In this document: positions 808 through 26,269 of the stretch, one piece after another
Position numbering within the stretch: the stretch's first letter is position 1
Layout of the letters: every line of letters starts with the position of its first letter
NCBI GenBank assembly: GCA_044892505.1
Contig: CM097882.1
Location: 312,356,001 to 312,420,000 of the forward strand
Source of the DNA: Schmidtea nova
Taxonomy: Eukaryota
Length of the DNA stretch: 64,000 nucleotides
Direction: 5' to 3'
The notes under the pieces: generated by a model
Database searches by the model: none
What the model saw: the letters and a program-made list of their open reading frames with translations, nothing else
Told to the model about the DNA's origin: nothing
Translations under genes and position numbers: made by a program

Positions 808-987
808 AATTTTTCTCAATTCATTATTTGACTTTTATTATATTTGCAACTCTTTTTTTAATTCATAACGCAATTTTGTTGTTGAATTCTCTACTTTGTA
901 CATAAATTTTATTCAAGTGAATTCAGTACATTTTGTCAAGGTAATTCGAAAATCAAACATGCACAACAATTGTTAGTTGAAACTGTC

Positions 988-1060
988 GGTTCGATGGTGT
1001 AGCGGTTATCACGTCTGCCTAACACGCAGAAGGTCCCCGGTTCGATCCCGGGTCGAACCA
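988..1060 (+). tRNA. tRNA-Val(AAC)
   Basis: Cloverleaf: acceptor GGTTCGA/TCGAACC, D stem GTG/CAC, anticodon stem TCTGC/GCAGA with loop CTAACAC, T stem CCCGG/CCGGG with loop TTCGATC; A box TGGTGTAGCGG, B box GGTTCGATCCC. Confidence 0.96.
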
Positions 1061-1062
1061 AA

Positions 1063-1067
1063 TTTTT
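1063..1067 (+). terminator. Pol III T5 terminator (repeated after every tRNA unit; a T7 run follows ~40 nt later)
   Basis: AATTTTT directly after the discriminator base. Confidence 0.8.
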
Positions 1068-1189
1068 CTCAATTCATTATTTGACTTTTATTATATTTGC
1101 AACTCTTTTTTTAATTCATAACGCAATTTTGTTGTTGAATTCTCTACTTTGTACATAAATTTTATTCAAGTGAATTCTTTCAAGGTTCG

Positions 1190-3823
1190 ATGACTCAATC
1201 ACCTGCTGCTCAGTCAACTGCTGCTGATGTAATGACTCAGTCTATTGCAAATCAGTCAACTGTGACGAAGCAATATGAATTAGAAAACATTCTCAAATAT
1301 CAAATTTCCAGTTTGCAATGTTTTCAATCGATTTTGGATTATTTTTCTCAACTAAATGGTGGAAATCTCGCTACTGCCTCAGTTCTATCTGATGCGAATG
1401 CAAGTCAACGGAGTTCTTTCGATCAAGGATCTAAAGTTTCTCCAAACCAATCTGATAATATGCCACTTTCTTATGCTGATATTGAGACTAAATTCACTAA
1501 ATCAAAGGATTTACTTATTGTCAAGCGCCTGGATTCATTGGAGTCTCAATTTATGAATATGGCTGAAAAGTTAGATTATTTGGTTTCTTTGTTTAATGGC
1601 TCTGTTGATGATTTATCAGATTTTCCTAAAGTAAATGAAAATAATTTAAATAATAATCCTTTCAATAAAAATAAAGTTTTTGATATCAAAGATAAATTAA
1701 TTGTAAATAATGTAGTTTTAGATAAATCAAATATTTCAGAATTTATTGAAAATAATATTGCTAAAATTCCTAATAGTTTAATTGATGTAAATAATAAAAT
1801 GTGTAATTCAAATAATAAATTTCTAAATAACCCTAATAAAGAGAATGTTAAACATTTTAATAATCCCAAAGATACATCTTCAATTGATTTGACTAACGAT
1901 AAAATTATGCCAAATGAAAACATAGAAATAATTATTAAAAATAATAAAAAATCTGTTAAAATTATAGAACTTTATAAAACAACTAAACAGAAGTATGATA
2001 AATTTGAATTTAAAAGTCTGGTTCGTATTTTAACGAAAAGGGAACGCCAGAAAATCTTGAATGCCTTCCCTGCTTTAATACAACTAATTAAAAAGAAAGA
2101 ATCACAGAGTAAATATTTTGAAATTAATAAATTTCTTTCGAGCAAAGATTTTAATGTGAATCACTTGAATTTAATTAATTTTGATTATTTTTTCTATAGA
2201 AATTGTAATCTTTGTGTATCTTTAAAATTGAACAACGCTCCTGTCATTTCATCAGCACCAAAACCTGTTGTTTTAAAAACTATTAAATTAATTGACCATA
2301 ATATCGTCAAAATAAATTCTGAAATCCCTGACTTTGTTCGAGCTCCAATGTCAATTCGAAGATTTTTATTCAATCTTTCGCACGATCTTTCAAACACTGT
2401 TTCCATCAAGGATGAGAAACACAGGGGAAATAAAATAAATAACATTCTTACTTCAATGAAACATAAACAACAATTACCAGATTATTTAATAAAATCAAAC
2501 ATTAAATACGAAAATGGTGAGTTCTTATTATTAGATTTGACTAACGATAAAATCAAATTGAACGACGATAATAACTTGATAAAATCAAATTTTTCTGAAC
2601 TTACTAGAAGTCAGATTAAAAATCTTTACCATTCTTATCCTTCTCTTAAGGAAGTTTGTTTCGTTGAAAATCTTGAAACAAGATCATCATCCGTTAGTAA
2701 AATTATCGAATCTTTAAAGTTAATTAATGAATTTCCAAAAAATATCATTTTTAAAGAGGGTAAATTTTATCAGTCTGATAAAAGAACAATCTCACCTAGT
2801 AGTTCTCCTGACATAATGTTCAACCTTGGTCTTTTTAATTTAGCTAGTATGAGTAGAAAAGATTGTGAATTAAAATCCATTTTAGAGAAGACTGGTTGTG
2901 ACTTTAAAATAGTTGAAATAATATTCTACCTCAACTATTTAGGCTTGACTCAATCTTTAGAATTTTGCAAAAATCAAACTTATTCTGATTATGTGAGGAA
3001 TTACGTCTGCAATTGCTGCTTGATAAACTCACTCTGTAGTATTGCTGATGTTGATTCGCTTTCATCTGAAGATTTTGAGGGTTGGGCGACCGAAATTGTT
3101 CAGAAAATCCCAGTTTCTTCCTATTACTTCAATAGCTGCCAGGAAAAGCTTTTAAAGCTGAAGCAATGGGACATTTCAACTAAAATCAAAAGAATCCATA
3201 ACGTTATTTCACCTGAAATAATATCTTATTTAAATAACTTTCTTGACTCTGTAGACGTAAAATTTCCATCTAAGTCTCAACAACATAATATTCTAATTAA
3301 ATTAATGAAAGCTATCAATGACATTAAAATTTTTGATGACATACACGGAAATAAAGCAAAAAGACTTGTTTACTTTTTGCTAAGAGATGCCAAGAAATAT
3401 TTGAATAAAAATCAACGATTCAGATTATTTGAATCGAGCAATAAATATTGCACTTTAGAGATGGAGAATATAATTTCAGTAATAATTGAGAACCTTACCA
3501 AAGTTACTGACCATGAAGTTACTACTCCTGAAATCACAGTTGAAGAAACGCCAATTGAAATAACTTGTGATCCTGAACCTATCGTCTTGATTAAGGAAAT
3601 AAACTGTTTAAAATGCAACAATATCATCGAAAAATGCATTCTTGTTAGAGATGGAACAAACGTCAACATCTGTGAAAGCTGTCTATTTGACGCAATTACC
3701 TTTGAAAAGCCGATTCCTGAAGCTACTAATTCGGATATCGAAGAAAATATAGAAACAAATTGTAAGAAATCTTGTCCAAGACCTAGAAAAACAGACAAGA
3801 AAACATCAACCAAAGCAAAATGA
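1190..3823 (+). CDS. ORF1 protein (877 aa), putative nucleic-acid-binding/structural protein with C-terminal CxxC..CxxC zinc finger
   Basis: Long ORF open in all 8 copies; CLKC..CESC motif, basic tail, possible coiled coil (KRLDSLESQFMNMAEKLDYL). Confidence 0.88.
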   Translation: MTQSPAAQSTAADVMTQSIANQSTVTKQYELENILKYQISSLQCFQSILDYFSQLNGGNLATASVLSDANASQRSSFDQGSKVSPNQSDNMPLSYADIETKFTKSKDLLIVKRLDSLESQFMNMAEKLDYLVSLFNGSVDDLSDFPKVNENNLNNNPFNKNKVFDIKDKLIVNNVVLDKSNISEFIENNIAKIPNSLIDVNNKMCNSNNKFLNNPNKENVKHFNNPKDTSSIDLTNDKIMPNENIEIIIKNNKKSVKIIELYKTTKQKYDKFEFKSLVRILTKRERQKILNAFPALIQLIKKKESQSKYFEINKFLSSKDFNVNHLNLINFDYFFYRNCNLCVSLKLNNAPVISSAPKPVVLKTIKLIDHNIVKINSEIPDFVRAPMSIRRFLFNLSHDLSNTVSIKDEKHRGNKINNILTSMKHKQQLPDYLIKSNIKYENGEFLLLDLTNDKIKLNDDNNLIKSNFSELTRSQIKNLYHSYPSLKEVCFVENLETRSSSVSKIIESLKLINEFPKNIIFKEGKFYQSDKRTISPSSSPDIMFNLGLFNLASMSRKDCELKSILEKTGCDFKIVEIIFYLNYLGLTQSLEFCKNQTYSDYVRNYVCNCCLINSLCSIADVDSLSSEDFEGWATEIVQKIPVSSYYFNSCQEKLLKLKQWDISTKIKRIHNVISPEIISYLNNFLDSVDVKFPSKSQQHNILIKLMKAINDIKIFDDIHGNKAKRLVYFLLRDAKKYLNKNQRFRLFESSNKYCTLEMENIISVIIENLTKVTDHEVTTPEITVEETPIEITCDPEPIVLIKEINCLKCNNIIEKCILVRDGTNVNICESCLFDAITFEKPIPEATNSDIEENIETNCKKSCPRPRKTDKKTSTKAK

Positions 3824-3889
3824 AGATGTGTGCCTGCATCAGCTCAATCGTCTGCCATTCCCTCTAATGAGACTGATGCAGAGAGCACA
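3821..3889 (+). promoter_or_regulatory. Putative stop-codon readthrough signal: in-frame UGA + downstream stem-loop
   Basis: TGTGC-CTGCATCAG-CTCA (3829-3846) pairs with TGAG-a-CTGATGCAG-aga-GCACA (3868-3889); same in all 8 copies. Confidence 0.6.
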
Positions 3890-6800
3890 ACTAAAAATAA
3901 TATTTCAACTATCGACAATCGTGATCCTGAAGTGTGGTTTTCTGATAATGATATTGATTGGTATCTTGAAAACCACATTGATAATCCAATGCATGGATAT
4001 ATTAAATGCTTTATAGTAAATATCATCTGTTCTAACATCACAGAAGATATTGTTGAAATTCCACCATCTATTAGCAATGCTGAAATTGTATTTTGTCCAC
4101 TCAACATTAACAATTCGCACTGGATTCTTTTTGTTTATAGTAAGAAAATGTTATCTTCTTACTTTATTGACCCAATCCTTGCAAACAGACAAAAGCCAAT
4201 CAATAAACAAATGGCTCAGAGAATTAATCTAAAACTGAATAGATTTTTTAATCTAAATATATCTGTGTCCCGACATCCACACAAACATCTTGAATATCAA
4301 AATAACAGCTTTGATTGTGGCCCATTTACGTGTGCTTATGCTGTGATTATCAGTAAAGATTTGAACAGCTTTCCAAATGGGTTCATAGAGAAAATTCGTA
4401 CCAGTGTGCATGAAAATCAAAATCGTATGCAAATAACCGAATCCACCTTATTCGCTGGTACTAACTCCAAGATGGACATGACCAAAATAAATATCAAGAA
4501 AGCCCTTGCAAAAAAGAAAGTCATCACCAACACCTCAGATATGACCAAAGTATTGAACACTCAAAAACCGTGTGTGTCATCAATAATTAGTAAATATTAC
4601 GAAAGTAATTCTAAAATAACAGTCTTATCTGCCGAACTAACTTTAAACCTAATTGCACAAAATACCTCCTTCATAGCTGATAATGTCACTTTCAAGCAGT
4701 TCAAAGGAATCGATCATGTTATAAGTATCATTCCTAAATTTAACGATTGGTGTCTCTTTGTCTATTCGAATAAACTTGACAGGAGCTACATGTTCGACTT
4801 CAATTATCGAAACATTGATGAAAGGCTAATTGAAATTGGTGAAAAGATAACTGAATATCTGAATCAATTCACTCTTGTTTCTAAAATAAAATTCACACCT
4901 CATCATAGAATTTCTCATCCAACATTTCATTCTTACGATGATCAATATTTTGCAAGTTCTTTTATTGTATTTTTTGAGAAACTTGTCTTTGAAAGAATAC
5001 TGGACAATGATAAGGTTTATGACTCATTAAGTGCTCTAAAATATCAGTCTTGTAAAGATCTTTCTCCTAGCTTAAGTTTCATTAATGGTAAAATATCCGA
5101 CAAAATTATTGAGGAATATTTTGCTAGCCTAAACTTATCGACCAAATATATTCTTCTAAACACAACAATGTGTACTGCGCTTTCAGATGATTGCACTGAA
5201 TACTTGAAAGACTTTGTAAACATTGAGTGCATGATGAAGGCTACTATAATCTTTGTAATCATTTCTCCTCCAAGAGCCAACGACTTGCTCATGGTTATTG
5301 ATTACGACGCTGATGAGCACTATTTATTAAGCCCAGTCACTAATGACTTGTTCGTTATGACTGAAGGATTCTGCTATAAATTACTAATTAAAATTAATGA
5401 GATTAGAGAGAGCACAGGTCGTTCCTTGAAATCGCGTAATTGTCGACATGACGTTAAAGGTTCTGGCTTATTTAGTAGGTTATTAATCTGTGCCTTTATT
5501 AAATATTATGCATTTGACCGATCTCTAGAAAATATCAATCTTCATGAAATTGGCAAAATTATCTACTCACTTGTGCCATTAGTTGATAAAAATGATAATG
5601 CTGAGGAAGAAAGACGACTAAAATCAAAAGCTGTAAACTCTTTAAAACTAAATTTAAAACAGCGAATAGAAAAAGCCAATAATCTTATAATTTCACTTGA
5701 ACACGCCAGTATTGATGAAATCATAAGTGGCATTCTTTCAAATATTCCTCGTCTTAAAGATTTGAACACCGATCACATTCGTACACCATATTTAGGTACT
5801 AAAGTAGAAAAAGCTAGAAAATTCAAAAATTCCACTGAATTTCTGTCAAACATGAAAAAGACTGTGTATAGGATTTTGGGTAACAACACAGAATCAATTG
5901 CACCTCCTTTTCAGGAAATTATTGACACTTTCAGTCATCCTGATACATTACCTAGAAATTGGGAAAACATCTTTAAATTCACTAAGAGTTCTAAATTTAG
6001 TCTTGAATTAAATCCAATGACACCTAAAGAAATCCTTTCAAGTCTTTGCAAAGCTGACAACACTTCTCCAGGTCTTGATAATGTTTGTTATAAAGATCTT
6101 TTGCTATTAGACCCTGAATGTAAATTGCTAGCTTTTCTGTACAATAAAATCCTAAAATTAGACATTATTCCTACAAGTTGGAAATCATTTAAAACCATAC
6201 TAATCCCTAAACCAGATAAAAATGGCCAATATCATAAAATATATTCTTGGCGACCAATTGCCTTATTATCTGTCATTTACAAAGTCTTCGCTTCAGTTTT
6301 GGCAAATCGTCTAAGCTTATGGATAAGAAATAATTCCATGTTACACATTGGCCAAAAGGGTGGTTCGGAGTACGAAGGATGTATTGAACACAACTCTATT
6401 CTTTCTGCTATCGTCGAACATTCAAAATACAGCAAGTCTTCACCTTTAACAATAGCTTGGCTAGACATCAAAGATGCCTTCGGAAGTGTTCCACATGACT
6501 ACATGTGGACACTGTTAAAACACATAAATGTTAGTGATAGGTTTGTAGGAATTTTAAAACTGCTCTATACTGATACAAGCTCGTTTTATTGTTGCAATAA
6601 AATGCAGACACCGGATATTCCAATAAAGAAAGGAGTTAAACAAGGTTGTCCGATCTCAATGATATTGTTTGCAATAGCTATTAACCCAGTACTTGAGTCT
6701 ATTAATCTATCAAACGTTAATCCTTTTACGATTGGAACATCTCCGGTACAGGTGTTGGCTTATGCGGATGATATCGCACTTATCGCGACAAATACCTCTG

Positions 6801-8440
6801 ATCTGCAAATACTCATAAACGTTGCTGTAAACACCGCTAAAACAATTGGATTTGAATATCGTCCAGAAAAGTGCGCTTATATGCAATACCCTAAAATAGA
6901 AACTGTAAGCGAGATTTCTGTCAACAATGTTCTTATAAAAAAGATTGCAACAAATGAATTTTACCAATACTTGGGAGTACCAATAGGTGACAATAATGAC
7001 CAAAGTCCCTATGAAATTCTAAGCAAAGTAATTGAAGACACAAAGAAAATAGCAAATTCTGATCTTTACGGCTGGCAAAAACTTAAAGCGTATAAGGTCT
7101 TTCTGCATTCTCGCTTGATTTTTCCATTTAGAACTAGGGAAATCAAAACAAGTTCTTTAGCTGATTCGAGTAAAAATTCAAAATTAAATGTAAATAATAC
7201 GAGTATTTTGAGGAGTCATCTTAGAAAAATATTGCACTTGCCACACTACTCTGAGATTAGCTATTTTTATAATTCTACTGAAAACGGCGGTGCAGGCTGC
7301 ATAGACTTACTTGACGAGTATCATACACAGACAATCGTGTACTTTTTCCGCTTGTTAACATCAACGTGCGAATATTCGAAAAAGATAAATACTGACTCGC
7401 TTTTATTTGTCACAAGTCCGAGACTCGGAATCAAAAATCCAGTTCTTAAACAAAGTTTAGAATGGATAAATGGAAAAGAGAGCAAGAAAAACAACAGTGG
7501 TTGCAAAACTCGATTTTATCGGTTGCGATCATCCATTGCTTACTTTTCTAAAGTTCACAACATTAAATTGTTATTTGAAACAGTGAAAGGGAATCCTTCT
7601 ATCCGTATAACCACTACACTTAAGGGAACACGTATATTATTACCAACATTAAGAAAAGCATTGTCAATGATTTTACATTCAGCTCTCCAGGATTCGTATC
7701 TCGAGAAATGGGAGAATAGCAACCATAATAATCTGCTTGTATCTGCGATTAAACTCTGTCCACTTGTCAACAAGCTTATTTTCCGCAGTGATTTGACAGA
7801 ATTTGAATGGAGATTCGTCCATCGAGCAAGAACGAATACATTATCAATATTTGCGAAGCCATATAAAACTGGCGAAAATCGTCTTTGTCGTAGATGTAAG
7901 CTTGAAGACGAGACTTTATCACACGTTCTTCAAACTTGTAAAATGAACAAATCTTTGGCAACTAGTCGACATAACGCTTGCTTAGAAAAAATAAAAAGCG
8001 AGTTGAAAGATCCAAACTTGTTAGTTGTTGCGGATCATAAATGTTCCCTAGTACCGACATCAACTGAACGCGTTGATTTAATAATAACCAATAATGATAA
8101 AAAGACCATATTATTGGTAGACATGAAATGCCCAATCGATTCGGTGCCCAACTTTGACTTGGCTGATAAAAAAAACATAGAAAAGTATGATAAACTAAAA
8201 TCGGAAATTAAAATAGCCAAACCCGATTATAAAGTTGAGTTGTTTACCTGCATCATAGGCTCATTAGGATCCATTGAAATTAAAACACCTGATCTTTTAG
8301 TAAAAATGGGCGTAAAAGAAAATAAAGTAAAACGTCTGATGAAAGAGTGTGCAATTAGCAATATTGCGCACTCGGCCAAAATTTGGTACTTTCATACCAA
8401 TGGCTTTCTTCCAGATAATATAAGACAAACTTTTAAATAA
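3830..8440 (+). CDS. ORF2: Ulp1-like protease + reverse transcriptase + CCHC + restriction-like endonuclease (frame open from 3824; true start uncertain)
   Basis: SHW/FID/QNNSFDCG protease triad; WRPIALL, LDIKDAFGSV, GVKQGCPIS, YADD, YLGV RT motifs; CRRC..HVLQTC, RHN, VD..D-x-K, KxxKY. Confidence 0.95.
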   Translation: MPASAQSSAIPSNETDAESTTKNNISTIDNRDPEVWFSDNDIDWYLENHIDNPMHGYIKCFIVNIICSNITEDIVEIPPSISNAEIVFCPLNINNSHWILFVYSKKMLSSYFIDPILANRQKPINKQMAQRINLKLNRFFNLNISVSRHPHKHLEYQNNSFDCGPFTCAYAVIISKDLNSFPNGFIEKIRTSVHENQNRMQITESTLFAGTNSKMDMTKINIKKALAKKKVITNTSDMTKVLNTQKPCVSSIISKYYESNSKITVLSAELTLNLIAQNTSFIADNVTFKQFKGIDHVISIIPKFNDWCLFVYSNKLDRSYMFDFNYRNIDERLIEIGEKITEYLNQFTLVSKIKFTPHHRISHPTFHSYDDQYFASSFIVFFEKLVFERILDNDKVYDSLSALKYQSCKDLSPSLSFINGKISDKIIEEYFASLNLSTKYILLNTTMCTALSDDCTEYLKDFVNIECMMKATIIFVIISPPRANDLLMVIDYDADEHYLLSPVTNDLFVMTEGFCYKLLIKINEIRESTGRSLKSRNCRHDVKGSGLFSRLLICAFIKYYAFDRSLENINLHEIGKIIYSLVPLVDKNDNAEEERRLKSKAVNSLKLNLKQRIEKANNLIISLEHASIDEIISGILSNIPRLKDLNTDHIRTPYLGTKVEKARKFKNSTEFLSNMKKTVYRILGNNTESIAPPFQEIIDTFSHPDTLPRNWENIFKFTKSSKFSLELNPMTPKEILSSLCKADNTSPGLDNVCYKDLLLLDPECKLLAFLYNKILKLDIIPTSWKSFKTILIPKPDKNGQYHKIYSWRPIALLSVIYKVFASVLANRLSLWIRNNSMLHIGQKGGSEYEGCIEHNSILSAIVEHSKYSKSSPLTIAWLDIKDAFGSVPHDYMWTLLKHINVSDRFVGILKLLYTDTSSFYCCNKMQTPDIPIKKGVKQGCPISMILFAIAINPVLESINLSNVNPFTIGTSPVQVLAYADDIALIATNTSDLQILINVAVNTAKTIGFEYRPEKCAYMQYPKIETVSEISVNNVLIKKIATNEFYQYLGVPIGDNNDQSPYEILSKVIEDTKKIANSDLYGWQKLKAYKVFLHSRLIFPFRTREIKTSSLADSSKNSKLNVNNTSILRSHLRKILHLPHYSEISYFYNSTENGGAGCIDLLDEYHTQTIVYFFRLLTSTCEYSKKINTDSLLFVTSPRLGIKNPVLKQSLEWINGKESKKNNSGCKTRFYRLRSSIAYFSKVHNIKLLFETVKGNPSIRITTTLKGTRILLPTLRKALSMILHSALQDSYLEKWENSNHNNLLVSAIKLCPLVNKLIFRSDLTEFEWRFVHRARTNTLSIFAKPYKTGENRLCRRCKLEDETLSHVLQTCKMNKSLATSRHNACLEKIKSELKDPNLLVVADHKCSLVPTSTERVDLIITNNDKKTILLVDMKCPIDSVPNFDLADKKNIEKYDKLKSEIKIAKPDYKVELFTCIIGSLGSIEIKTPDLLVKMGVKENKVKRLMKECAISNIAHSAKIWYFHTNGFLPDNIRQTFK

Positions 8441-8795
8441 ATAATTATATATATATATAAATATTTGCTTTTTAAACTCTGTAAATAAAAATTAAAGTAA
8501 ATATTTTGTAAAGTAATTTTTGTATTAAATATCCAATCTTTTTAATCTGATAAATTGTCTTTGAGAGTTATTAAATTGGGAGACCAAGTATTCTGCAACG
8601 TATGTCACTTATTCTAGACTTATCAACTTCAAAAGAATACAGTCGCAAAGCTGGATGACGAAATCCAAAGAACCAGAAACTTCCATTCAGATTGAACAAT
8701 TATATTTTGACTGTGATTGTTTAGGGACTAATCCATGTTGATTAGATAATCTGTAAAAAAAATATGTCAAACTTGTTATATTTAATAAATGTTTA

Positions 8796-8850
8796 TTATC
8801 ACGTCTGCCTAACACGCAGAAGGTCCCCGGTTCGATCCCGGGTCGAACCA
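8796..8850 (+). pseudogene. tRNA-Val(AAC) 3' fragment (nt 19-73)
   Basis: Same junction as 753. Confidence 0.93.
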
Positions 8851-9030
8851 AATTTTTCTCAATTCATTATTTGACTTTTATTATATTTGCAACTCTTTTT
8901 TTATTTCATAACGCAATTTTGTTGTTGAATTCTCTACTTTGTACATAAATTTTATTCAAGTGAATTCAGTACATTTTGTCAAGGTAATTCGAAAATCAAA
9001 CATGCACAACAATTGTTAGTTGAAACTGTC

Positions 9031-9103
9031 GGTTCGATGGTGTAGCGGTTATCACGTCTGCCTAACACGCAGAAGGTCCCCGGTTCGATCCCGGGTCGAA
9101 CCA
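9031..9103 (+). tRNA. tRNA-Val(AAC)
   Basis: Identical to 988-1060. Confidence 0.96.
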
Positions 9104-9283
9104 AATTTTTCTCAATTCATTATTTGACTTTTATTATATTTGCAACTCTTTTTTTAATTCATAACGCAATTTTGTTGTTGAATTCTCTACTTTGTACATA
9201 AATTTTATTCAAGTGAATTCAGTACATTTTGTCAAGGTAATTCGAAAATCAAACATGCACAACAATTGTTAGTTGAAACTGTC

Positions 9284-9356
9284 GGTTCGATGGTGTAGCG
9301 GTTATCACGTCTGCCTAACACGCAGAAGGTCCCCGGTTCGATCCCGGGTCGAACCA
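9284..9356 (+). tRNA. tRNA-Val(AAC)
   Basis: Identical to 988-1060. Confidence 0.96.
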
Positions 9357-9536
9357 AATTTTTCTCAATTCATTATTTGACTTTTATTATATTTGCAACT
9401 CTTTTTTTAATTCATAACGCAATTTTGTTGTTGAATTCTCTACTTTGTACATAAATTTTATTCAAGTGAATTCAGTACATTTTGTCAAGGTAATTCGAAA
9501 ATCAAACATGCACAACAATTGTTAGTTGAAACTGTC

Positions 9537-9609
9537 GGTTCGATGGTGTAGCGGTTATCACGTCTGCCTAACACGCAGAAGGTCCCCGGTTCGATCCCGG
9601 GTCGAACCA
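9537..9609 (+). tRNA. tRNA-Val(AAC)
   Basis: Identical to 988-1060. Confidence 0.96.
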
Positions 9610-9789
9610 AATTTTTCTCAATTCATTATTTGACTTTTATTATATTTGCAACTCTTTTTTTAATTCATAACGCAATTTTGTTGTTGAATTCTCTACTTTG
9701 TACATAAATTTTATTCAAGTGAATTCAGTACATTTTGTCAAGGTAATTCGAAAATCAAACATGCACAACAATTGTTAGTTGAAACTGTC

Positions 9790-9862
9790 GGTTCGATGGT
9801 GTAGCGGTTATCACGTCTGCCTAACACGCAGAAGGTCCCCGGTTCGATCCCGGGTCGAACCA
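9790..9862 (+). tRNA. tRNA-Val(AAC)
   Basis: Identical to 988-1060. Confidence 0.96.
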
Positions 9863-10042
9863 AATTTTTCTCAATTCATTATTTGACTTTTATTATATTT
9901 GCAACTCTTTTTTTAATTCATAACGCAATTTTGTTGTTGAATTCTCTACTTTGTACATAAATTTTATTCAAGTGAATTCAGTACATTTTGTCAAGGTAAT
10001 TCGAAAATCAAACATGCACAACAATTGTTAGTTGAAACTGTC

Positions 10043-10115
10043 GGTTCGATGGTGTAGCGGTTATCACGTCTGCCTAACACGCAGAAGGTCCCCGGTTCGA
10101 TCCCGGGTCGAACCA
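10043..10115 (+). tRNA. tRNA-Val(AAC)
   Basis: Identical to 988-1060. Confidence 0.96.
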
Positions 10116-10223
10116 AATTTTTCTCAATTCATTATTTGACTTTTATTATATTTGCAACTCTTTTTTTAAGTGTTGATATATATATTGTAAATTTTAACGA
10201 TTGATAAATTCTTTCAAGGTTCG

Positions 10224-12857
10224 ATGACTCAATCACCTGCTGCTCAGTCAACTGCTGCTGATGTGATGACTCAGTCTATTGGAAATCAGTCAACTGTGAC
10301 GAAGAAATATGAATTAGAAAACATTCTCAAGTATCAAATTTCCAGTTTGCAATGTTTTCAATCGATTTTGGATTATTTTTCGCAACTAAATGGTGGAAAT
10401 CTCGCTACTGCCTCAGTTCTTTCTGATGCGAATGCAAGTCAACGGAGTTCTTTCGATCAAGGATCTAAAATTTCTCAAAACCAATCTGATAATATGCCAC
10501 TTTCTTATGCTGATATTGAGACTAAATTCACTAAATCAAAGGATTTACTGATTGTCAAGCGCCTGGATTCATTGGAGTCTCAATTTATGAATATGGCTGA
10601 AAAGTTAGATTATTTGGTTTCTTTTTTTAATGGCTCTGTTGATGATTTATCAGATTTTCCTAAAGTAAATGAAAATAATTTAAATAATAATCCTTTCAAT
10701 AAAAATAAAGTTTTTGATATCAAAGATAAATTAATTGTAAATAATGTAGTTTTAGATAAATCAAATATTTCAGAATTTATTGAAAATAATATTGCTAAAA
10801 TTCCTAATAGTTTAATTGATGTAAATAATAAAATGTGTAATTCAAATAATAAATTTCTAAATAACCCTAATAAAGAGAATGTTAAACATTTTAATAATCC
10901 CAAAGAAACATCTTCAATTGATTTGACTAACGATAAAATTATGCCAAATGAAAACATAGAAATAATTATTAAAAATAATAAAAAATCTGTTAAAATTATA
11001 GAACCTAATAAAACAACTAAACAGAAGTATGATAAATTTGAATTTAAAAATCTGGTTCGTATTTTAACGAAAAGGGAACGCCAGAAAATCTTGAATGCCT
11101 TCCCTGCTTTAATACAACTAATTAAAAAGAAAGAATCACAGAGTAAATATTTTGAAATTAATAAATTTCTTTCGAGCAAAGATTTTAATGTGAATCACTT
11201 GAATTTAATTAATTTTGATTATTTTTTCTATAGAAATTGTAATCTTTGTGTATCTTTAAAATTGAACAACGCTCCTGTCATTTCATCAGCACCAAAACCT
11301 GTTGTTTTAAAATCTATTAAATTAATTGACCATAATATCGTCAAAATAAATTCTGAAATCCCTGACTTTGTTCGAGCTCCAATGTCAATTCGAAGATTTT
11401 TATTCAATCTTTCGCACGATCTTTCAAACACTGTTTCCATCAAGGATGAGAAACACAGGGGAAATAAAATAAATAACATTCTTACTTCAATGAAACATAA
11501 ACAACAATTACCAGATTATTTAATAAAATCAAACATTAAATACGAAAATGGTGAATTCTTATTATTAGATTTGACTAACGATAAAATCAAATTGAACGAC
11601 GATAATAACTTGATAAAATCAAATTTTTCTGAACTTACTAGAAGTCAGATTAAAAATCTTTACTATTCTTATCCTTCTCTTAAGGAAGTTTGTTTCGTTG
11701 AAAATCTTGAAACAAGATCATCATCCGTTAGTAAAATTATCGAATCTTTAAAGTTAATTAATGAATTTCCAAAAAATATCATTTTTAAAGAGGGTAAATT
11801 TTATCAGTCTGATAAAAGAACAATCTCACCTAGTAGTTCTCCTGACATAATGTTCAACCTAGGTCTTTTTAATTTGGCTAGTATGAGTAGAAAAGATTGT
11901 GAATTAAAATCCATTTTAGAGAAGACTGGTTGTGACTTTAAAATAGTTGAAATAATATTCTACCTCAACTATTTAGGCTTGACTCAATCTTTAGAATTTT
12001 GCAAAAATCAAACTTATTCCGATTATGTGAGGAATTACGTCTGTAATTGCTGCTTGATAAACTCACTCTGTAGTATTGCTGATGTTGATTCGCTTTCATC
12101 TGAAGATTTTGAGGGTTGGGCGACCGAAATTGTTCAGAAAATCCCAGTTTCTTCCTATTACTTCAATAGCTGCCAGGAAAAGCTTTTAAAGCTGAAGCAA
12201 TGGGACATTTCAACTAAAATCAAAAGAATCCATAACGTTATTTCACCTGAAATAATATCTTATTTAAATAACTTTCTTGACTCTGTAGACGTAAAATTTT
12301 CATCTAAGTCTCAACAACATAATATTCTAATTAAATTAATGAAAGCTATCAATGACATTAAAATTTTTGATGACATACACGGAAATAAAGCAAAAAGACT
12401 TGTTTACTTTTTGCTAAGAGATGCCAAGAAATATTTGAATAAAAATCAACGATTCAGATTATTTGAATCGAGCAATAAATATTGCACTTCAGAGATGGAG
12501 AATATAATTTCAGTAATAATTGAGAACCTTACCAAAGTTACTGACCATGAAGTTACTACTCCTGAAATCACAGTTGAAGAAACGCCAATTGAAATAACTT
12601 GTGATCCTGAACCTATCGTCTTGATTAAGGAAATAAACTGTTTAAAATGTAACAATATCATCGAAAAATGCATTCTTGTTAGAGATGGAACAAACGTCAA
12701 CATCTGTGAAAGCTGTCTATTTGACGCAATTACCTTTGAAAAGCCGATTCCTGAAGCTACTAATTCGGATATCGAAGAAAATATAGAAACAAATTGTAAG
12801 AAATCTTGTCCAAGACCTAGAAAAACAGACAAGAAAACATCAACCAAAGCAAAATGA
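10224..12857 (+). CDS. ORF1 protein (877 aa)
   Basis: Near-identical to the copy 1 ORF1. Confidence 0.88.
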   Translation: MTQSPAAQSTAADVMTQSIGNQSTVTKKYELENILKYQISSLQCFQSILDYFSQLNGGNLATASVLSDANASQRSSFDQGSKISQNQSDNMPLSYADIETKFTKSKDLLIVKRLDSLESQFMNMAEKLDYLVSFFNGSVDDLSDFPKVNENNLNNNPFNKNKVFDIKDKLIVNNVVLDKSNISEFIENNIAKIPNSLIDVNNKMCNSNNKFLNNPNKENVKHFNNPKETSSIDLTNDKIMPNENIEIIIKNNKKSVKIIEPNKTTKQKYDKFEFKNLVRILTKRERQKILNAFPALIQLIKKKESQSKYFEINKFLSSKDFNVNHLNLINFDYFFYRNCNLCVSLKLNNAPVISSAPKPVVLKSIKLIDHNIVKINSEIPDFVRAPMSIRRFLFNLSHDLSNTVSIKDEKHRGNKINNILTSMKHKQQLPDYLIKSNIKYENGEFLLLDLTNDKIKLNDDNNLIKSNFSELTRSQIKNLYYSYPSLKEVCFVENLETRSSSVSKIIESLKLINEFPKNIIFKEGKFYQSDKRTISPSSSPDIMFNLGLFNLASMSRKDCELKSILEKTGCDFKIVEIIFYLNYLGLTQSLEFCKNQTYSDYVRNYVCNCCLINSLCSIADVDSLSSEDFEGWATEIVQKIPVSSYYFNSCQEKLLKLKQWDISTKIKRIHNVISPEIISYLNNFLDSVDVKFSSKSQQHNILIKLMKAINDIKIFDDIHGNKAKRLVYFLLRDAKKYLNKNQRFRLFESSNKYCTSEMENIISVIIENLTKVTDHEVTTPEITVEETPIEITCDPEPIVLIKEINCLKCNNIIEKCILVRDGTNVNICESCLFDAITFEKPIPEATNSDIEENIETNCKKSCPRPRKTDKKTSTKAK

Positions 12858-12863
12858 AGATGT

Positions 12864-15800
12864 GTGCCTGCATCAGCTCAATCGTCTGCCATTCCCTCTA
12901 ATGAGACTGATGCAGAGAGCACAACTAAAAATAATATTTCAACTATCGACAATCGTGATCCTGAAGTGTGGTTTTCTGATAATGATATTGATTGGTATCT
13001 TGAAAACCACATTGATAATCCAATGCATGGATATATTAAATGCTTTATAGTAAATATCATCTGTTCTAACATCACAGAAGATATTGTTGAAATTCCACCA
13101 TCTATTAGCAATGCTGAAATTGTATTTTGTCCACTCAACATTAACAATTCGCACTGGATTCTTTTTGTTTATAGTAAGAAAATGTTATCTTCTTACTTTA
13201 TTGACCCAATCCTTGCAAACAGACAAAAGCCAATCAATAAACAAATGGCTCAGAGAATTAACCTAAAACTGAATAGATTTTTTAATCTAAATATATCTGT
13301 GTCCCGACATCCACACAAACATCTTGAATATCAAAATAACAGCTTTGATTGTGGCCCATTTACGTGTGCTTATGCTGTGATTATCAGTAAAGATTTGAAC
13401 AGCTTTCCAAATGGGTTCATAGAGAAAATTCGTACCAGTGTGCATGAAAATCAAAATCGTATGCAAATAACCGAATCCACCTTATTCGCTGGTACTAACT
13501 CCAAGATGGACATGACCAAAATAAATATCAAGAAAGCCCTTGCAAAAAAGAAAGTCATCACCAACACCTCAGATATGACCAAAGTATTGAACACTCAAAA
13601 ACCGTGTGTGTCATCAATAATTAGTAAATATTACGAAAGTAATTCTAAAATAACAGTCTTATCTGCCGAACTAACTTTAAACCTAATTGCACAAAATACC
13701 TCCTTCATAGCTGATAATGTCACTTTCAAGCAGTTCAAAGGAATCGATCATGTTATAAGTATCATTCCTAAATTTAACGATTGGTGTCTCTTTGTCTATT
13801 CGAATAAACTTGACAGGAGCTACATGTTCGACTTCAATTATCGAAACATTGATGAAAGGCTAATTGAAATTGGTGAAAAGATAACTGAATATCTGAATCA
13901 ATTCACTCTTGTTTCTAAAATAAAATTCACACCTCATCATAGAATTTCTCATCCAACATTTCATTCTTACGATGATCAATATTTTGCAAGTTCTTTTATT
14001 GTATTTTTTGAGAAACTTGTCTTTGAAAGAATACTGGACAATGATAAGGTTTATGACTCATTAAGTGCTCTAAAATATCAGTCTTGTAAAGATCTTTCTC
14101 CTAGCTTAAGTTTCATTAATGGTAAAATATCCGACAAAATTATTGAGGAATATTTTGCTAGCCTAAACTTATCGACCAAATATATTCTTCTAAACACAAC
14201 AATGTGTACTGCGCTTTCAGATGATTGCACTGAATACTTGAAAGACTTTGTAAACATTGAGTGCATGATGAAGGCTACTATAATCTTTGTAATCATTTCT
14301 CCTCCAAGAGCCAACGACTTGCTCATGGTTATTGATTACGACGCTGATGAGCACTATTTATTAAGCCCAGTCACTAATGACTTGTTCGTTATGACTGAAG
14401 GATTCTGCTATAAATTACTAATTAAAATTAATGAGATTAGAGAGAGCACAGGTCGTTCCTTGAAATCGCGTAATTGTCGACATGACGTTAAAGGTTCTGG
14501 CTTATTTAGTAGGTTATTAATCTGTGCCTTTATTAAATATTATGCATTTGACCGATCTCTAGAAAATATCAATCTTCATGAAATTGGCAAAATTATCTAC
14601 TCACTTGTGCCATTAGTTGATAAAAATGATAATGCTGAGGAAGAAAGACGACTAAAATCAAAAGCTGTAAACTCTTTAAAACTAAATTTAAAACAGCGAA
14701 TAGAAAAAGCCAATAATCTTATAATTTCACTTGAACACGCCAGTATTGATGAAATCATAAGTGGCATTCTTTCAAATATTCCTCGTCTTAAAGATTTGAA
14801 CACCGATCACATTCGTACACCATATTTAGGTACTAAAGTAGAAAAAGCTAGAAAATTCAAAAATTCCACTGAATTTCTGTCAAACATGAAAAAGACTGTG
14901 TATAGGATTTTGGGTAACAACACAGAATCAATTGCACCTCCTTTTCAGGAAATTATTGACACTTTCAGTCATCCTGATACATTACCTAGAAATTGGGAAA
15001 ACATCTTTAAATTCACTAAGAGTTCTAAATTTAGTCTTGAATTAAATCCAATGACACCTAAAGAAATCCTTTCAAGTCTTTGCAAAGCTGACAACACTTC
15101 TCCAGGTCTTGATAATGTTTGTTATAAAGATCTTTTGCTATTAGACCCTGAATGTAAATTGCTAGCTTTTCTGTACAATAAAATCCTAAAATTAGACATT
15201 ATTCCTACAAGTTGGAAATCATTTAAAACCATACTAATCCCTAAACCAGATAAAAATGGCCAATATCATAAAATATATTCTTGGCGACCAATTGCCTTAT
15301 TATCTGTCATTTACAAAGTCTTCGCTTCAGTTTTGGCAAATCGTCTAAGCTTATGGATAAGAAATAATTCCATGTTACACATTGGCCAAAAGGGTGGTTC
15401 GGAGTACGAAGGATGTATTGAACACAACTCTATTCTTTCTGCTATCGTCGAACATTCAAAATACAGCAAGTCTTCACCTTTAACAATAGCTTGGCTAGAC
15501 ATCAAAGATGCCTTCGGAAGTGTTCCACATGACTACATGTGGACACTGTTAAAACACATAAATGTTAGTGATAGGTTTGTAGGAATTTTAAAACTGCTCT
15601 ATACTGATACAAGCTCGTTTTATTGTTGCAATAAAATGCAGACACCGGATATTCCAATAAAGAAAGGAGTTAAACAAGGTTGTCCGATCTCAATGATATT
15701 GTTTGCAATAGCTATTAACCCAGTACTTGAGTCTATTAATCTATCAAACGTTAATCCTTTTACGATTGGAACATCTCCGGTACAGGTGTTGGCTTATGCG

Positions 15801-17474
15801 GATGATATCGCACTTATCGCGACAAATACCTCTGATCTGCAAATACTCATAAACGTTGCTGTAAACACCGCTAAAACAATTGGATTTGAATATCGTCCAG
15901 AAAAGTGCGCTTATATGCAATACCCTAAAATAGAAACTGTAAGCGAGATTTCTGTCAACAATGTTCTTATAAAAAAGATTGCAACAAATGAATTTTACCA
16001 ATACTTGGGAGTACCAATAGGTGACAATAATGACCAAAGTCCCTATGAAATTCTAAGCAAAGTAATTGAAGACACAAAGAAAATAGCAAATTCTGATCTT
16101 TACGGCTGGCAAAAACTTAAAGCGTATAAGGTCTTTCTGCATTCTCGCTTGATTTTTCCATTTAGAACTAGGGAAATCAAAACAAGTTCTTTAGCTGATT
16201 CGAGTAAAAATTCAAAATTAAATGTAAATAATACGAGTATTTTGAGGAGTCATCTTAGAAAAATATTGCACTTGCCACACTACTCTGAGATTAGCTATTT
16301 TTATAATTCTACTGAAAACGGCGGTGCAGGCTGCATAGACTTACTTGACGAGTATCATACACAGACAATCGTGTACTTTTTCCGCTTGTTAACATCAACG
16401 TGCGAATATTCGAAAAAGATAAATACTGACTCGCTTTTATTTGTCACAAGTCCGAGACTCGGAATCAAAAATCCAGTTCTTAAACAAAGTTTAGAATGGA
16501 TAAATGGAAAAGAGAGCAAGAAAAACAACAGTGGTTGCAAAACTCGATTTTATCGGTTGCGATCATCCATTGCTTACTTTTCTAAAGTTCACAACATTAA
16601 ATTGTTATTTGAAACAGTGAAAGGGAATCCTTCTATCCGTATAACCACTACACTTAAGGGAACACGTATATTATTACCAACATTAAGAAAAGCATTGTCA
16701 ATGATTTTACATTCAGCTCTCCAGGATTCGTATCTCGAGAAATGGGAGAATAGCAACCATAATAATCTGCTTGTATCTGCGATTAAACTCTGTCCACTTG
16801 TCAACAAGCTTATTTTCCGCAGTGATTTGACAGAATTTGAATGGAGATTCGTCCATTGAGCAAGAACGAATACATTATCAATATTTGCGAAGCCATATAA
16901 AACTGGCGAAAATCGTCTTTGTCGTAGATGTAAGCTTGAAGACGAGACTTTATCACACGTTCTTCAAACTTGTAAAATGAACAAATCTTTGGCAACTAGT
17001 CGACATAACGCTTGCTTAGAAAAAATAAAAAGCGAGTTGAAAGATCCAAACTTGTTAGTTGTTGCGGATCATAAATGTTCCCTAGTACCGACATCAACTG
17101 AACGCGTTGATTTAATAATAACCAATAATGATAAAAAGACCATATTATTGGTAGACATGAAATGCCCAATCGATTCGGTGCCCAACTTTGACTTGGCTGA
17201 TAAAAAAAACATAGAAAAGTATGATAAACTAAAATCGGAAATTAAAATAGCCAAACCCGATTATAAAGTTGAGTTGTTTACCTGCATCATAGGCTCATTA
17301 GGATCCATTGAAATTAAAACACCTGATCTTTTAGTAAAAATGGGCGTAAAAGAAAATAAAGTAAAACGTCTGATGAAAGAGTGTGCAATTAGCAATATTG
17401 CGCACTCGGCCAAAATTTGGTACTTTCATACCAATGGCTTTCTTCCAGATAATATAAGACAAACTTTTAAATAA
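12864..17474 (+). pseudogene. ORF2 with premature stop (CGA>TGA at 16857) before the CCHC/endonuclease
   Basis: CATTGAGCA here vs CATCGAGCA in other copies; frame continues to 17474. Confidence 0.88.
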
Positions 17475-17831
17475 ATAATTATATATATATATATAAATAT
17501 TTGCTTTTTAAACTCTGTAAATAAAAATTAAAGTAAATATTTTGTAAAGTAATTTTTGTATTAAATATCCAATCTTTTTAATCTGATAAATTGTCTTTGA
17601 GAGTTATTAAATTGGGAGACCAAGTATTCTGCAACGTATGTCACTTATTCTAGACTTATCAACTTCAAAAGAATACAGTCGCAAAGCTGGATGACGAAAT
17701 CCAAAGAACCAGAAACTTCCATTCAGATTGAACAATTATATTTTGACTGTGATTGTTTAGGGACTAATCCATGTTGATTAGATAATCTGTAAAAAAAATA
17801 TGTCAAACTTGTTATATTTAATAAATGTTTA

Positions 17832-17886
17832 TTATCACGTCTGCCTAACACGCAGAAGGTCCCCGGTTCGATCCCGGGTCGAACCA
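17832..17886 (+). pseudogene. tRNA-Val(AAC) 3' fragment (nt 19-73)
   Basis: Same junction; no intact tRNA before the next element. Confidence 0.93.
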
Positions 17887-17994
17887 AATTTTTCTCAATT
17901 CATTATTTGACTTTTATTATATTTGCAACTCTTTTTTTAAGTGTTGATATATATATTGTAAATTTTAACGATTGATAAATTCTTTCAAGGTTCG

Positions 17995-20628: not shown

Positions 20629-20634
20629 AGATGT

Positions 20635-23600
20635 GTGCCTGCATCAGCTCAATCGTCTGCCATTCCCTCTAATGAGACTGATGCAGAGAGCACAACTAAA
20701 AATAATATTTCAACTATCGACAATCGTGATCCTGAAGTGTGGTTTTCTGATAATGATATTGATTGGTATCTTGAAAACCACATTGATAATCCAATGCATG
20801 GATATATTAAATGCTTTATAGTAAATATCATCTGTTCTAACATCACAGAAGATATTGTTGAAATTCCACCATCTATTAGCAATGCTGAAATTGTATTTTG
20901 TCCACTCAACATTAACAATTCGCACTGGATTCTTTTTGTTTATAGTAAGAAAATGTTATCTTCTTACTTTATTGACCCAATCCTTGCAAACAGACAAAAG
21001 CCAATCAATAAACAAATGGCTCAGAGAATTAACCTAAAACTGAATAGATTTTTTAATCTAAATATATCTGTGTCCCGACATCCACACAAACATCTTGAAT
21101 ATCAAAATAACAGCTTTGATTGTGGCCCATTTACGTGTGCTTATGCTGTGATTATCAGTAAAGATTTGAACAGCTTTCCAAATGGGTTCATAGAGAAAAT
21201 TCGTACCAGTGTGCATGAAAATCAAAATCGTATGCAAATAACCGAATCCACCTTATTCGCTGGTACTAACTCCAAGATGGACATGACCAAAATAAATATC
21301 AAGAAAGCCCTTGCAAAAAAGAAAGTCATCACCAACACCTCAGATATGACCAAAGTATTGAACACTCAAAAACCGTGTGTGTCATCAATAATTAGTAAAT
21401 ATTACGAAAGTAATTCTAAAATAACAGTCTTATCTGCCGAACTAACTTTAAACCTAATTGCACAAAATACCTCCTTCATAGCTGATAATGTCACTTTCAA
21501 GCAGTTCAAAGGAATCGATCATGTTATAAGTATCATTCCTAAATTTAACGATTGGTGTCTCTTTGTCTATTCGAATAAACTTGACAGGAGCTACATGTTC
21601 GACTTCAATTATCGAAACATTGATGAAAGGCTAATTGAAATTGGTGAAAAGATAACTGAATATCTGAATCAATTCACTCTTGTTTCTAAAATAAAATTCA
21701 CACCTCATCATAGAATTTCTCATCCAACATTTCATTCTTACGATGATCAATATTTTGCAAGTTCTTTTATTGTATTTTTTGAGAAACTTGTCTTTGAAAG
21801 AATACTGGACAATGATAAGGTTTATGACTCATTAAGTGCTCTAAAATATCAGTCTTGTAAAGATCTTTCTCCTAGCTTAAGTTTCATTAATGGTAAAATA
21901 TCCGACAAAATTATTGAGGAATATTTTGCTAGCCTAAACTTATCGACCAAATATATTCTTCTAAACACAACAATGTGTACTGCGCTTTCAGATGATTGCA
22001 CTGAATACTTGAAAGACTTTGTAAACATTGAGTGCATGATGAAGGCTACTATAATCTTTGTAATCATTTCTCCTCCAAGAGCCAACGACTTGCTCATGGT
22101 TATTGATTACGACGCTGATGAGCACTATTTATTAAGCCCAGTCACTAATGACTTGTTCGTTATGACTGAAGGATTCTGCTATAAATTACTAATTAAAATT
22201 AATGAGATTAGAGAGAGCACAGGTCGTTCCTTGAAATCGCGTAATTGTCGACATGACGTTAAAGGTTCTGGCTTATTTAGTAGGTTATTAATCTGTGCCT
22301 TTATTAAATATTATGCATTTGACCGATCTCTAGAAAATATCAATCTTCATGAAATTGGCAAAATTATCTACTCACTTGTGCCATTAGTTGATAAAAATGA
22401 TAATGCTGAGGAAGAAAGACGACTAAAATCAAAAGCTGTAAACTCTTTAAAACTAAATTTAAAACAGCGAATAGAAAAAGCCAATAATCTTATAATTTCA
22501 CTTGAACACGCCAGTATTGATGAAATCATAAGTGGCATTCTTTCAAATATTCCTCGTCTTAAAGATTTGAACACCGATCACATTCGTACACCATATTTAG
22601 GTACTAAAGTAGAAAAAGCTAGAAAATTCAAAAATTCCACTGAATTTCTGTCAAACATGAAAAAGACTGTGTATAGGATTTTGGGTAACAACACAGAATC
22701 AATTGCACCTCCTTTTCAGGAAATTATTGACACTTTCAGTCATCCTGATACATTACCTAGAAATTGGGAAAACATCTTTAAATTCACTAAGAGTTCTAAA
22801 TTTAGTCTTGAATTAAATCCAATGACACCTAAAGAAATCCTTTCAAGTCTTTGCAAAGCTGACAACACTTCTCCAGGTCTTGATAATGTTTGTTATAAAG
22901 ATCTTTTGCTATTAGACCCTGAATGTAAATTGCTAGCTTTTCTGTACAATAAAATCCTAAAATTAGACATTATTCCTACAAGTTGGAAATCATTTAAAAC
23001 CATACTAATCCCTAAACCAGATAAAAATGGCCAATATCATAAAATATATTCTTGGCGACCAATTGCCTTATTATCTGTCATTTACAAAGTCTTCGCTTCA
23101 GTTTTGGCAAATCGTCTAAGCTTATGGATAAGAAATAATTCCATGTTACACATTGGCCAAAAGGGTGGTTCGGAGTACGAAGGATGTATTGAACACAACT
23201 CTATTCTTTCTGCTATCGTCGAACATTCAAAATACAGCAAGTCTTCACCTTTAACAATAGCTTGGCTAGACATCAAAGATGCCTTCGGAAGTGTTCCACA
23301 TGACTACATGTGGACACTGTTAAAACACATAAATGTTAGTGATAGGTTTGTAGGAATTTTAAAACTGCTCTATACTGATACAAGCTCGTTTTATTGTTGC
23401 AATAAAATGCAGACACCGGATATTCCAATAAAGAAAGGAGTTAAACAAGGTTGTCCGATCTCAATGATATTGTTTGCAATAGCTATTAACCCAGTACTTG
23501 AGTCTATTAATCTATCAAACGTTAATCCTTTTACGATTGGAACATCTCCGGTACAGGTGTTGGCTTATGCGGATGATATCGCACTTATCGCGACAAATAC

Positions 23601-25245: not shown

Positions 25246-25600
25246 ATAATTATATATATATATAAATATTTGCTTTTTAAACTCTGTAAATAAAAATTAA
25301 AGTAAATATTTTGTAAAGTAATTTTTGTATTAAATATCCAATCTTTTTAATCTGATAAATTGTCTTTGAGAGTTATTAAATTGGGAGACCAAGTATTCTG
25401 CAACGTATGTCACTTATTCTAGACTTATCAACTTCAAAAGAATACAGTCGCAAAGCTGGATGACGAAATCCAAAGAACCAGAAACTTCCATTCAGATTGA
25501 ACAATTATATTTTGACTGTGATTGTTTAGGGACTAATCCATGTTGATTAGATAATCTGTAAAAAAAATATGTCAAACTTGTTATATTTAATAAATGTTTA

Positions 25601-26161: not shown

Positions 26162-26269
26162 AATTTTTCTCAATTCATTATTTGACTTTTATTATATTTG
26201 CAACTCTTTTTTTAAGTGTTGATATATATATTGTAAATTTTAACGATTGATAAATTCTTTCAAGGTTCG

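Follow-up and report, generated by a model that had tools for sequence, protein, structure and literature searches.

How does a retrotransposon produce the enzymes of its second open reading frame (ORF) when that frame is separated from the first by a single in-frame stop codon? The question is raised by a 64,000-nt stretch of Schmidtea nova DNA (contig CM097882.1, forward-strand positions 312,356,001 to 312,420,000; hereafter the window, in which all positions below are counted). Here 253-bp tandem units, each with a tRNA-Val(AAC) gene, form an array with 23 intact genes that is broken up by eight copies, and the tail of a ninth, of a ~7.6-kb retrotransposon lacking long terminal repeats (non-LTR). 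The first-pass annotation had proposed that ORF1 and ORF2 of this element are joined by programmed readthrough of a UGA. Hairpin-stimulated UGA readthrough emerges from the present analysis as the leading and best-supported reading, at a probability of roughly 0.6, on the strength of hairpin covariation read from the proteins of diverged relatives and of the junction in one related protein, P0076; it is unproven, and SART1 and Tca2 provide counter-examples.

One reading frame interrupted by one UGA

The junction in copy 1 comprises the following features.

1190..3823, plus strand: ORF1, 877 aa, no Pfam family above the cut-off
3821..3823, plus strand: single UGA, in the context AAA-UGA-AGA
3824..8440, plus strand: ORF2, 1538 codons from stop to stop, first ATG at 3989
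3830..3832, plus strand: GUG, called start of ORF2 proteins in relatives; base-paired within the basal helix of the hairpin; flanked by U (-3) and C (+4)
3820..3867, plus strand: 15-codon ORF in the -1 frame, its AUG overlapping the stop (AUGA), with a second AUG at 3826, ending in the hairpin loop
3829..3889, plus strand: hairpin of 18 bp, -25.4 kcal/mol
3829/3830-3833 with 3885-3888/3889: basal helix of the hairpin, followed by a 3-nt bulge
3834-3846 with 3868-3881: 13-bp core of the hairpin, with one bulged A
3847-3867: 21-nt loop of the hairpin

The ATG of ORF1, the TGA and the GTG share one frame in all eight copies, as had been noticed before, and the 2416 codons of copy 1 from 1190 to 8437 contain one stop (TGA 3821-3823); ORF2 thus lies in frame across a single stop, the arrangement expected for readthrough. 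The claim that this UGA is the only stop holds for five of the seven complete copies, copy 1 among them, copy 8 being cut by the window end. The other two carry a further ORF2 lesion, namely a TGA at 16857-16859 in copy 2 and a 1-nt deletion at ~57608 in copy 7.

The junction AAA-TGA-AGA-TGT-GTG had been correctly reported as the same in every copy (8/8), and variation from -60 to +103 nt of the stop is confined to positions -60 and -4. This identity is no sign of selection because too few sites vary among near-identical copies: at the rate of ORF2 (49/4617), fewer than one variable column would be expected in the 69-nt junction element. The eight copies count as one observation, and the independent evidence is that of diverged relatives.

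No AUG near the stop opens ORF2. Its first in-frame ATG, at 3989, is residue 54 counted from the GTG and lies past WFSDNDID, in agreement with the earlier annotation. The AUG overlapping the stop was considered as an ORF2 start and rejected for its wrong frame: the AUGs at 3820 and 3826 open the 15-codon -1 frame, which does not lead into ORF2.

It is very improbable, and largely refuted, that the UGA codes for an amino acid, either as selenocysteine or under a reassigned code, or that a formerly continuous ORF was broken by a nonsense mutation since fixed or by an error of assembly. A 16-bp stem does lie 6 nt after the selenocysteine UGA of SEPN1 (PMC3159437), and eight near-identical copies could in principle share one lesion. 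Reassignment is contradicted by codon usage, with one TGA against 17 TGG and 57 TGY codons. For selenocysteine, the best match to a selenocysteine insertion sequence (SECIS) in the 3' untranslated region (UTR) pairs 5 of 12 helix positions in a pattern scan, and Rfam gave no SECIS match in 900-10300. A lesion or an error agrees poorly with the ORF2 differences among the diverged copies, which are mainly synonymous (19-20 vs 8-10). The break at the junction is also old, being the point where the ORF1 proteins of relatives stop and their ORF2 proteins start.

A stable hairpin downstream of the stop

Folding of 3821-3900 gave a z of -4.5, with none of 200 shuffles equally stable, and the 70-nt hairpin window (z -2.8) is the second most stable of the 758 windows of the element. 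The 18-bp bulged stem described in the first-pass annotation stands at 3829-3889, with reservations as to its foot: in a 260-nt context the pair probabilities reach 0.85-1.0 in the core and only 0.7 in the basal GUGC/GCAC helix, and the first U-A pair is mostly unformed. The arms code for VPASA and TDAEST. No Rfam family matches the hairpin, and the best complement of its loop as a long-range partner within the element measures just 7 nt. Eight loop nucleotides (3849-3856) are identical to tRNA-Val nt 25-32, just beyond the insertion site, which is probably chance.

Counted from the UGA, the spacer is 10 nt to the core and 5-6 nt to the basal helix, placing a stable structure within the ~6-12 nt past the stop that readthrough would call for. 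Known stimulators follow spacers of 6-9 nt, and Drosophila kelch combines UGA-A with a stem, as here (PMC3159437); 11-12 nt past the A-site codon lie in the mRNA channel (PMC13517186). By analogy with these systems, a core starting at 10 nt would suit readthrough, as a fair fit, and a GUG buried in the stem in poor context would not suit initiation. In yeast, readthrough is promoted by AA immediately upstream of the stop, a finding cited in PMC10085805. The leaky contexts UGA-C(UAG) and CARYYA are not found in AAA-UGA-AGA; such a context is not required when a stem is present, as in kelch (PMC3159437).

Apparent conservation of the hairpin in diverged relatives

Relatives of the element are known as proteins, so the conserved hairpin, the GUG as a paired Val codon, the shared frame and the cleavage motif discussed below are all read at the protein level. 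The ORF2 search returned 43 proteins among 6386 candidates, with a length range of 845-2692 aa that would admit the 2416-aa fusion, and a HMMER search with ORF1-X-protease returned 55, including relatives of ORF1 and further ORF2 N-termini. A protease match was present in 45 proteins, and 21 N-termini were tested for pairing of the arms. The arm-pairing set of 11 sequences consists of the window and ten relatives chosen by eye, and its pairs were back-translated (with TCN for paired Ser), giving possible rather than actual pairs. A profile search for more full-length or fused relatives gave seven matches, none new near the clade of the window.

At the VPAS of the window, five of the six closest near-full-length ORF2 relatives have an N-terminus of MPAS, MPAT or MPAP, and ten relatives carry [MV]-[PH]-x-x ... 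[DG]-[AV]-[DEN]-[SCD]-[TI] at the position of the hairpin. The ORF2 identity of these ten to the window is 33-52%. Arm spacing is 15 residues in 9/11 sequences, with a loop shorter by 4-5 residues in the other two. In the fixed register, 9-10 of 10 Watson-Crick pairs were possible in four of the five relatives first tested, against a null mean of ~4.9, and in the full set 9/11 sequences permit 9-10 of 10 pairs (fraction of random starts as good, 0-0.04). When arms were swapped among the 11 sequences, a permutation that ignores relatedness, 100 of 110 possible pairs were observed versus 92.2 +- 2.2 (p 0.0008); counting G-U pairs, 104 were observed versus 99.1 (p 0.005). Changes on both sides comprise Ala/Ala to Thr/Val (P0059), Ser/Asp to Pro/Gly (P0008, P0084) and Val/Thr to Asp/Ser (P0003, P0052), spread over ~4 branches.

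RNA pairing explains the conservation of the arms better than protein function does, because the arm peptide region is modelled at a predicted local distance difference test (pLDDT) score below 50. The hairpin thus appears to be conserved with compensatory changes in diverged relatives. Thr stands at the pairing position in 10/11 sequences, which would put C opposite the first base of the partner codon, i.e., GUG paired with CAC and not AUG.

In a reverse transcriptase (RT) tree built on 33 of 35 rows, two having been removed because of their envelope length, the window falls in a clade of ten (support 99/98). The motif is present in eight of its members; P0007 is without it, and P0009 is called from inside the protease.

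The shared frame in P0076 and alternative routes to ORF2

P0076 (362 aa, decayed, with altered catalytic motifs) reads without a change of frame from the CxxC/CxxC motif of ORF1 past VPASV...SDADST and on into the protease. Of 104 proteins it alone matches the protease profile as well as that of ORF1 (E 5.5e-7). In a gapless alignment of the window's TKAK*RCVPAS to TKSSSQSVPAS of P0076, the stop is matched by Ser and the GUG by an internal Val. This Val lies 44 residues past the last CxxC, compared with 53 in the window, and related ORF1 proteins end 41-61 residues past it. The protease-domain tree is poorly resolved and does not place P0076. A second lineage would thus show the shared frame and a Val at the GUG, on the evidence of one decayed protein. 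Of the conservation of stop plus hairpin in diverged relatives that the first-pass annotation had named as a check, the hairpin is supported through the proteins of ten relatives, and the stop and frame rest on P0076.

The same N-termini admit another explanation, since nine database proteins start exactly at the GUG codon as M-P/H. By termination-reinitiation or structure-directed internal initiation, ribosomes would restart 6 nt on, at the GUG or another near-cognate codon, with the hairpin holding or positioning them as in SART1, and a separate ORF2 protein starting MPASA would result. The available part of PMC5972666 describes coupled reinitiation in SART1 that needs a downstream structure, as well as reinitiation of L1 ORF2; non-AUG codons are usable, according to the portion of PMC3542737 at hand, and translation of the internal ribosome entry site type is reported for R2 proteins in that of PMC7650587. 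An in-frame AUC at 3911 offers a further candidate start, in strong context and with a second hairpin (~3932-3977, z -3.1) ~18 nt downstream over the WFSDND codons; it is not evidently retained in relatives. Gene callers write GTG starts as Met, and the M of the database proteins is probably such a rendering, P0076 having Val in this place. An initiating non-AUG codon does best with a stem ~14 nt downstream, a purine at -3 and G at +4 (PMC3542737), whereas the GUG here is paired and flanked by U at -3 and C at +4. The overlapping AUGA leads into the dead-end frame of 15 codons. Reinitiation needs no shared frame, yet two lineages show one. No UGGGA (motif 1 of the termination upstream ribosomal binding site) occurs in 3720-3823, the ~100 nt upstream of the stop; this motif is not required for SART1 reinitiation. 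On balance, initiation behind the stop is an unlikely alternative.

A separate ORF2 RNA would also dispense with readthrough, and is improbable. It could arise by spliced-leader trans-splicing that supplies an AUG, by cis-splicing or from an internal promoter, and the hairpin would then have a part in processing or packaging the RNA or in protecting it from decay, and none in decoding. In flatworms the spliced leader has an AUG at its end and is able to provide the start codon (PMC9851317), an in-frame AG (3870-3871) follows the pyrimidine-rich loop, and a minor promoter was found in the Tca2 junction, according to the accessible part of PMC2194720. The in-frame acceptors before the protease are, however, only GAG and not YAG, and most relatives have Ile, Leu or Ser at this residue, none of which is encoded by a codon ending in AG. 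A start at the AUG 3989 would lose the conserved Trp-Phe of the protease. Neither the shared frame nor the fixed place of the stem after the stop is explained by a separate RNA.

The protease behind the stop and its candidate cleavage site

The domain order and the intact protease triad are read directly from the DNA.

3605..3682, plus strand: CxxC-x18-CxxC zinc-binding motif near the ORF1 C-terminus, retained in relatives
3935..4447, plus strand: Ulp1/SENP-type (clan CE) cysteine protease, Peptidase_C48 E 6e-7, with His 4118, Asp 4169, Gln 4298 and Cys 4316
4448..4459, plus strand: LFAG, candidate self-cleavage site, where relatives have di-glycine, at the start of a low-confidence linker in the model
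4574..5593, plus strand: two protease-like repeats without catalytic His and Cys, profile E 0.0026 and 2.4e-5, with the same strand-helix pattern in the model
6203..6982, plus strand: RT (YADD), RVT_1 E 1.6e-29, closest solved relatives R2 proteins
7886..8386, plus strand: CCHC knuckle and restriction-like endonuclease (R-x-D...D-x-K), invariant columns, aligned to the R2 C-terminal domain

ORF1 has a conserved core (~residues 360-780) and a C-terminal CxxC/CxxC, common to at least eight long relatives. No Pfam family above the cut-off was found in 13 members of its family, and there was no usable Atlas match; a word-based search gave no match among 8000 candidates, the relatives coming from the HMMER search only. 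In ORF2, the protease triad is invariant in nine aligned proteins, and profile searches of the PDB and fold searches place Ulp1/SENP first (model mean pLDDT 84.6, predicted template modelling score 0.47). The invariant residues of the knuckle and endonuclease are C1355, C1358, H1367, C1372, R1416, D1418, D1433 and K1435. A single dead Ulp1-like repeat appears to be present in relatives such as P0007, P0012, P0055, P0061 and P0065.

GG lies 39-55 residues past the catalytic motif in 17/27 relatives, compared with 6.7% of random windows (38 proteins were examined, of which 3 without the catalytic motif and 8 too short were left out). Clan CE proteases cleave after GG or AG. The di-glycine after the protease is likely a self-cleavage site, and self-processing by the Ulp1-type protease is plausible, judging from the relatives. 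Self-cleavage alone does not decide between readthrough and reinitiation.

Proposed mechanism and its weak points

By stop-codon readthrough, the bulk product would be the ORF1 protein, and a minority of translation rounds would yield an ORF1-protease-RT-endonuclease polyprotein. While the UGA occupies the A site, the mRNA channel would hold the weak basal helix in melted form; the 13-bp core, 10 nt past the stop, would stand at the ribosome entry pore, slow termination and allow a near-cognate tRNA to be admitted. The Ulp1-type protease would subsequently cut after a small-residue or di-glycine site at its own C-terminal end, leaving the protease on ORF1 and freeing the two dead protease repeats together with the RT and endonuclease. 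The fusion protein, its level, the inserted residue and the cleavage are predictions. The readthrough proposal as first made had left out the overlapping AUGA, the spliced-leader route of flatworms and the position of the basal stem inside the ribosome during UGA decoding.

In-frame stops between gag and pol are known in retroviruses and LTR retrotransposons (PMC10085805, PMC5009743, each in its available part). As in gammaretrovirus gag-pol and alphavirus nsP3-nsP4, the in-frame stop stands between a structural and an enzymatic ORF with an RNA structure nearby downstream (PMC3159437, PMC13517186), and the element shares with these viral systems a protease directly after the stop. Unlike them, it has a plain hairpin with a 21-nt loop instead of a pseudoknot or long-loop stem, a spacer of 10 nt to the core and 5-6 nt to the basal helix, and a clan CE cysteine protease, it is a non-LTR element, and its readthrough is a prediction. 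The LTR elements Tj1, Tosmo1-3 and Tcry1 (PMC10085805) and Tca2 (PMC2194720) likewise retain a lone UGA between ORFs with AA before it, as far as the accessible parts of these sources describe them; the fission-yeast ones differ in using UGA-CU. Among non-LTR elements with a bicistronic RNA, the accessible part of PMC5972666 describes a structure downstream of the junction in SART1, where an overlapping stop-start AUG opens ORF2, whereas the overlapping AUG here opens a dead-end frame; L1 has a 63-nt spacer between its ORFs, whereas ORF2 here is without an early AUG.

Several observations weigh against readthrough. The stop context is UGA-A and not UGA-C, so not the leakiest, and the three stacked G-C pairs that strong viral stimulators usually have (PMC13517186) are missing from the core. 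According to the available part of PMC2194720, the UGA and predicted pseudoknot of Tca2 gave no readthrough in a reporter, and SART1 and Tca2 together show, by analogy, that similar layouts can work otherwise. In the arm comparison, P0008 and P0052 permit eight pairs (fraction of random starts as good, 0.18 and 0.28), not significant alone, and the other ten N-termini, including the clade member P0007, permit 5-8 pairs, not above the null; the covariation case is weakened by the choice of the 11 sequences by eye, by the use of back-translated possible pairs and by a permutation blind to kinship. The candidate cut site of the window has AG (LFAG) and not GG, and several relatives have G-x-G. 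The in-frame fusion of P0076 could stem from an indel in a decayed copy, and no intact fused ORF1-ORF2 protein was found among the 104 proteins. The stop, its identity and the frame are seen directly in the DNA of the window only.

Affiliation of the element

As in the R2 group, whose members carry a restriction-like endonuclease (RLE), the RT is followed by a CCHC knuckle and such an endonuclease; there is no apurinic endonuclease (APE) domain and there are no LTRs, the element being flanked by tRNA units. As in the R5/LIN lineage of the NeSL clade, a Ulp1-like protease with an intact triad precedes the RT and insertion is site-specific in a multicopy RNA gene. The available part of PMC4640811 describes the planarian members LIN25_SM (tRNA-Glu), LIN15_SM (tRNA-Arg) and LIN9/24/26_SM (28S), to which the element is similar as an RLE-type non-LTR element inserting site-specifically in tRNA genes, as well as a Ulp1-like protease in NeSL and Utopia-1_TSP. 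Judged by eye against S6 Fig of that source, the 3' terminus appears to resemble that of LIN25_SM; a 15-nt motif common to both occurs once per 3' end, giving eight matches versus 0.01 expected. Relative to the lineage as described there, the target at tRNA-Val(AAC) nt 18/19, the apparent 109-bp duplication and the three protease-like repeats are different. The matches included no protein with an R5 or LIN name, and in the RT tree the supported clade is made up of unnamed proteins and stands separate from the rows with arthropod and nematode names. The element resembles the planarian R5/LIN lineage and is a probable new member of it.

Copies and target site

The copies and their target are arranged as follows.

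1178..8795, plus strand: non-LTR retrotransposon copy 1, with a shortened 5' end
10170-17831, 17941-25600, 26216-33874 and 34237-41896: examples of full-length copies, starting 54 nt upstream of the ATG
50277 and 58824, ends of other copies; 61211, one start; 1-752, 3' end of the ninth
8441..8795, plus strand: 3' UTR, its terminus apparently resembling the printed LIN25_SM 3' end
8796..10169, plus strand: target, tandem 253-bp units with the tRNA-Val(AAC) gene
17832..17940, plus strand: 109 bp of target, unit positions 19-127, separating copies 2 and 3; an apparent target-site duplication

The GC content of the window is 31.8%. The 3' junction lies between tRNA nt 18 and 19 in 8/8 copies, and the 5' junction at unit position 127 in 5/8 (10170, 17941, 26216, 34237, 61211). 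The apparent 109-bp duplication spans tRNA nt 19 to 54 nt beyond the gene and would leave an intact tRNA-Val gene upstream of every full-length copy. A target-site duplication of this size is unusually long, the case of rotifer R9 being alike. The three copies with shortened 5' ends (1178, 42669, 51209) are joined elsewhere in the tRNA unit via short microhomologies and all retain the ORF1 ATG; the full 5' UTR is just 54 nt.

Copies differ from each other at 2-30 of 2634 ORF1 positions and 1-32 of 4617 ORF2 positions (~99-99.98% identity). They are grouped differently by ORF1 and by ORF2, which suggests recombination or gene conversion inside the array. On the minus strand, opposite the start of ORF1, four copies have 194 codons without a stop (10610-11194, 18381-18965, 34677-35261, 61651-62235), probably a by-product. 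The most stable 70-nt window of the element, at 8341-8410 (z -6.0), contains an 11-bp perfect stem (~8345-8373) where the endonuclease-coding part ends, and is possibly a 3' recognition signal.

Implications for non-LTR retrotransposons

Worked-out cases of non-LTR ORF2 translation are few, SART1 and L1 using reinitiation as far as the available sources go. No published readthrough or hairpin of this kind was found for any non-LTR element in literature that left most subscription journals, the original R5 and SART1 papers and Repbase uncovered. As a mechanism, the recoding signal described here would be known already, but not from this class of element. It is conceivable, at somewhat less than even odds, that a non-LTR lineage targeting tRNA and rRNA genes independently reached the gag-pro-pol logic of gammaretroviruses. 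UGA readthrough stimulated by the hairpin would then set the ratio of ORF1 to polymerase, a captured SUMO-type protease would mature the polyprotein through a cut at a SUMO-like di-glycine at its own end, and dead repeats would stay on the RT-endonuclease.

If readthrough is true, the conserved stop-hairpin and adjoining protease would add readthrough and polyprotein processing to the non-LTR class, and the Ulp1-like domain of NeSL-clade elements would gain a concrete substrate. The 70-nt recoding signal, with its natural compensatory variants, would be testable in a standard reporter. The real start of the RT protein would then be set by cleavage instead of a start codon, which would bear on the use of site-specific R2-group elements.

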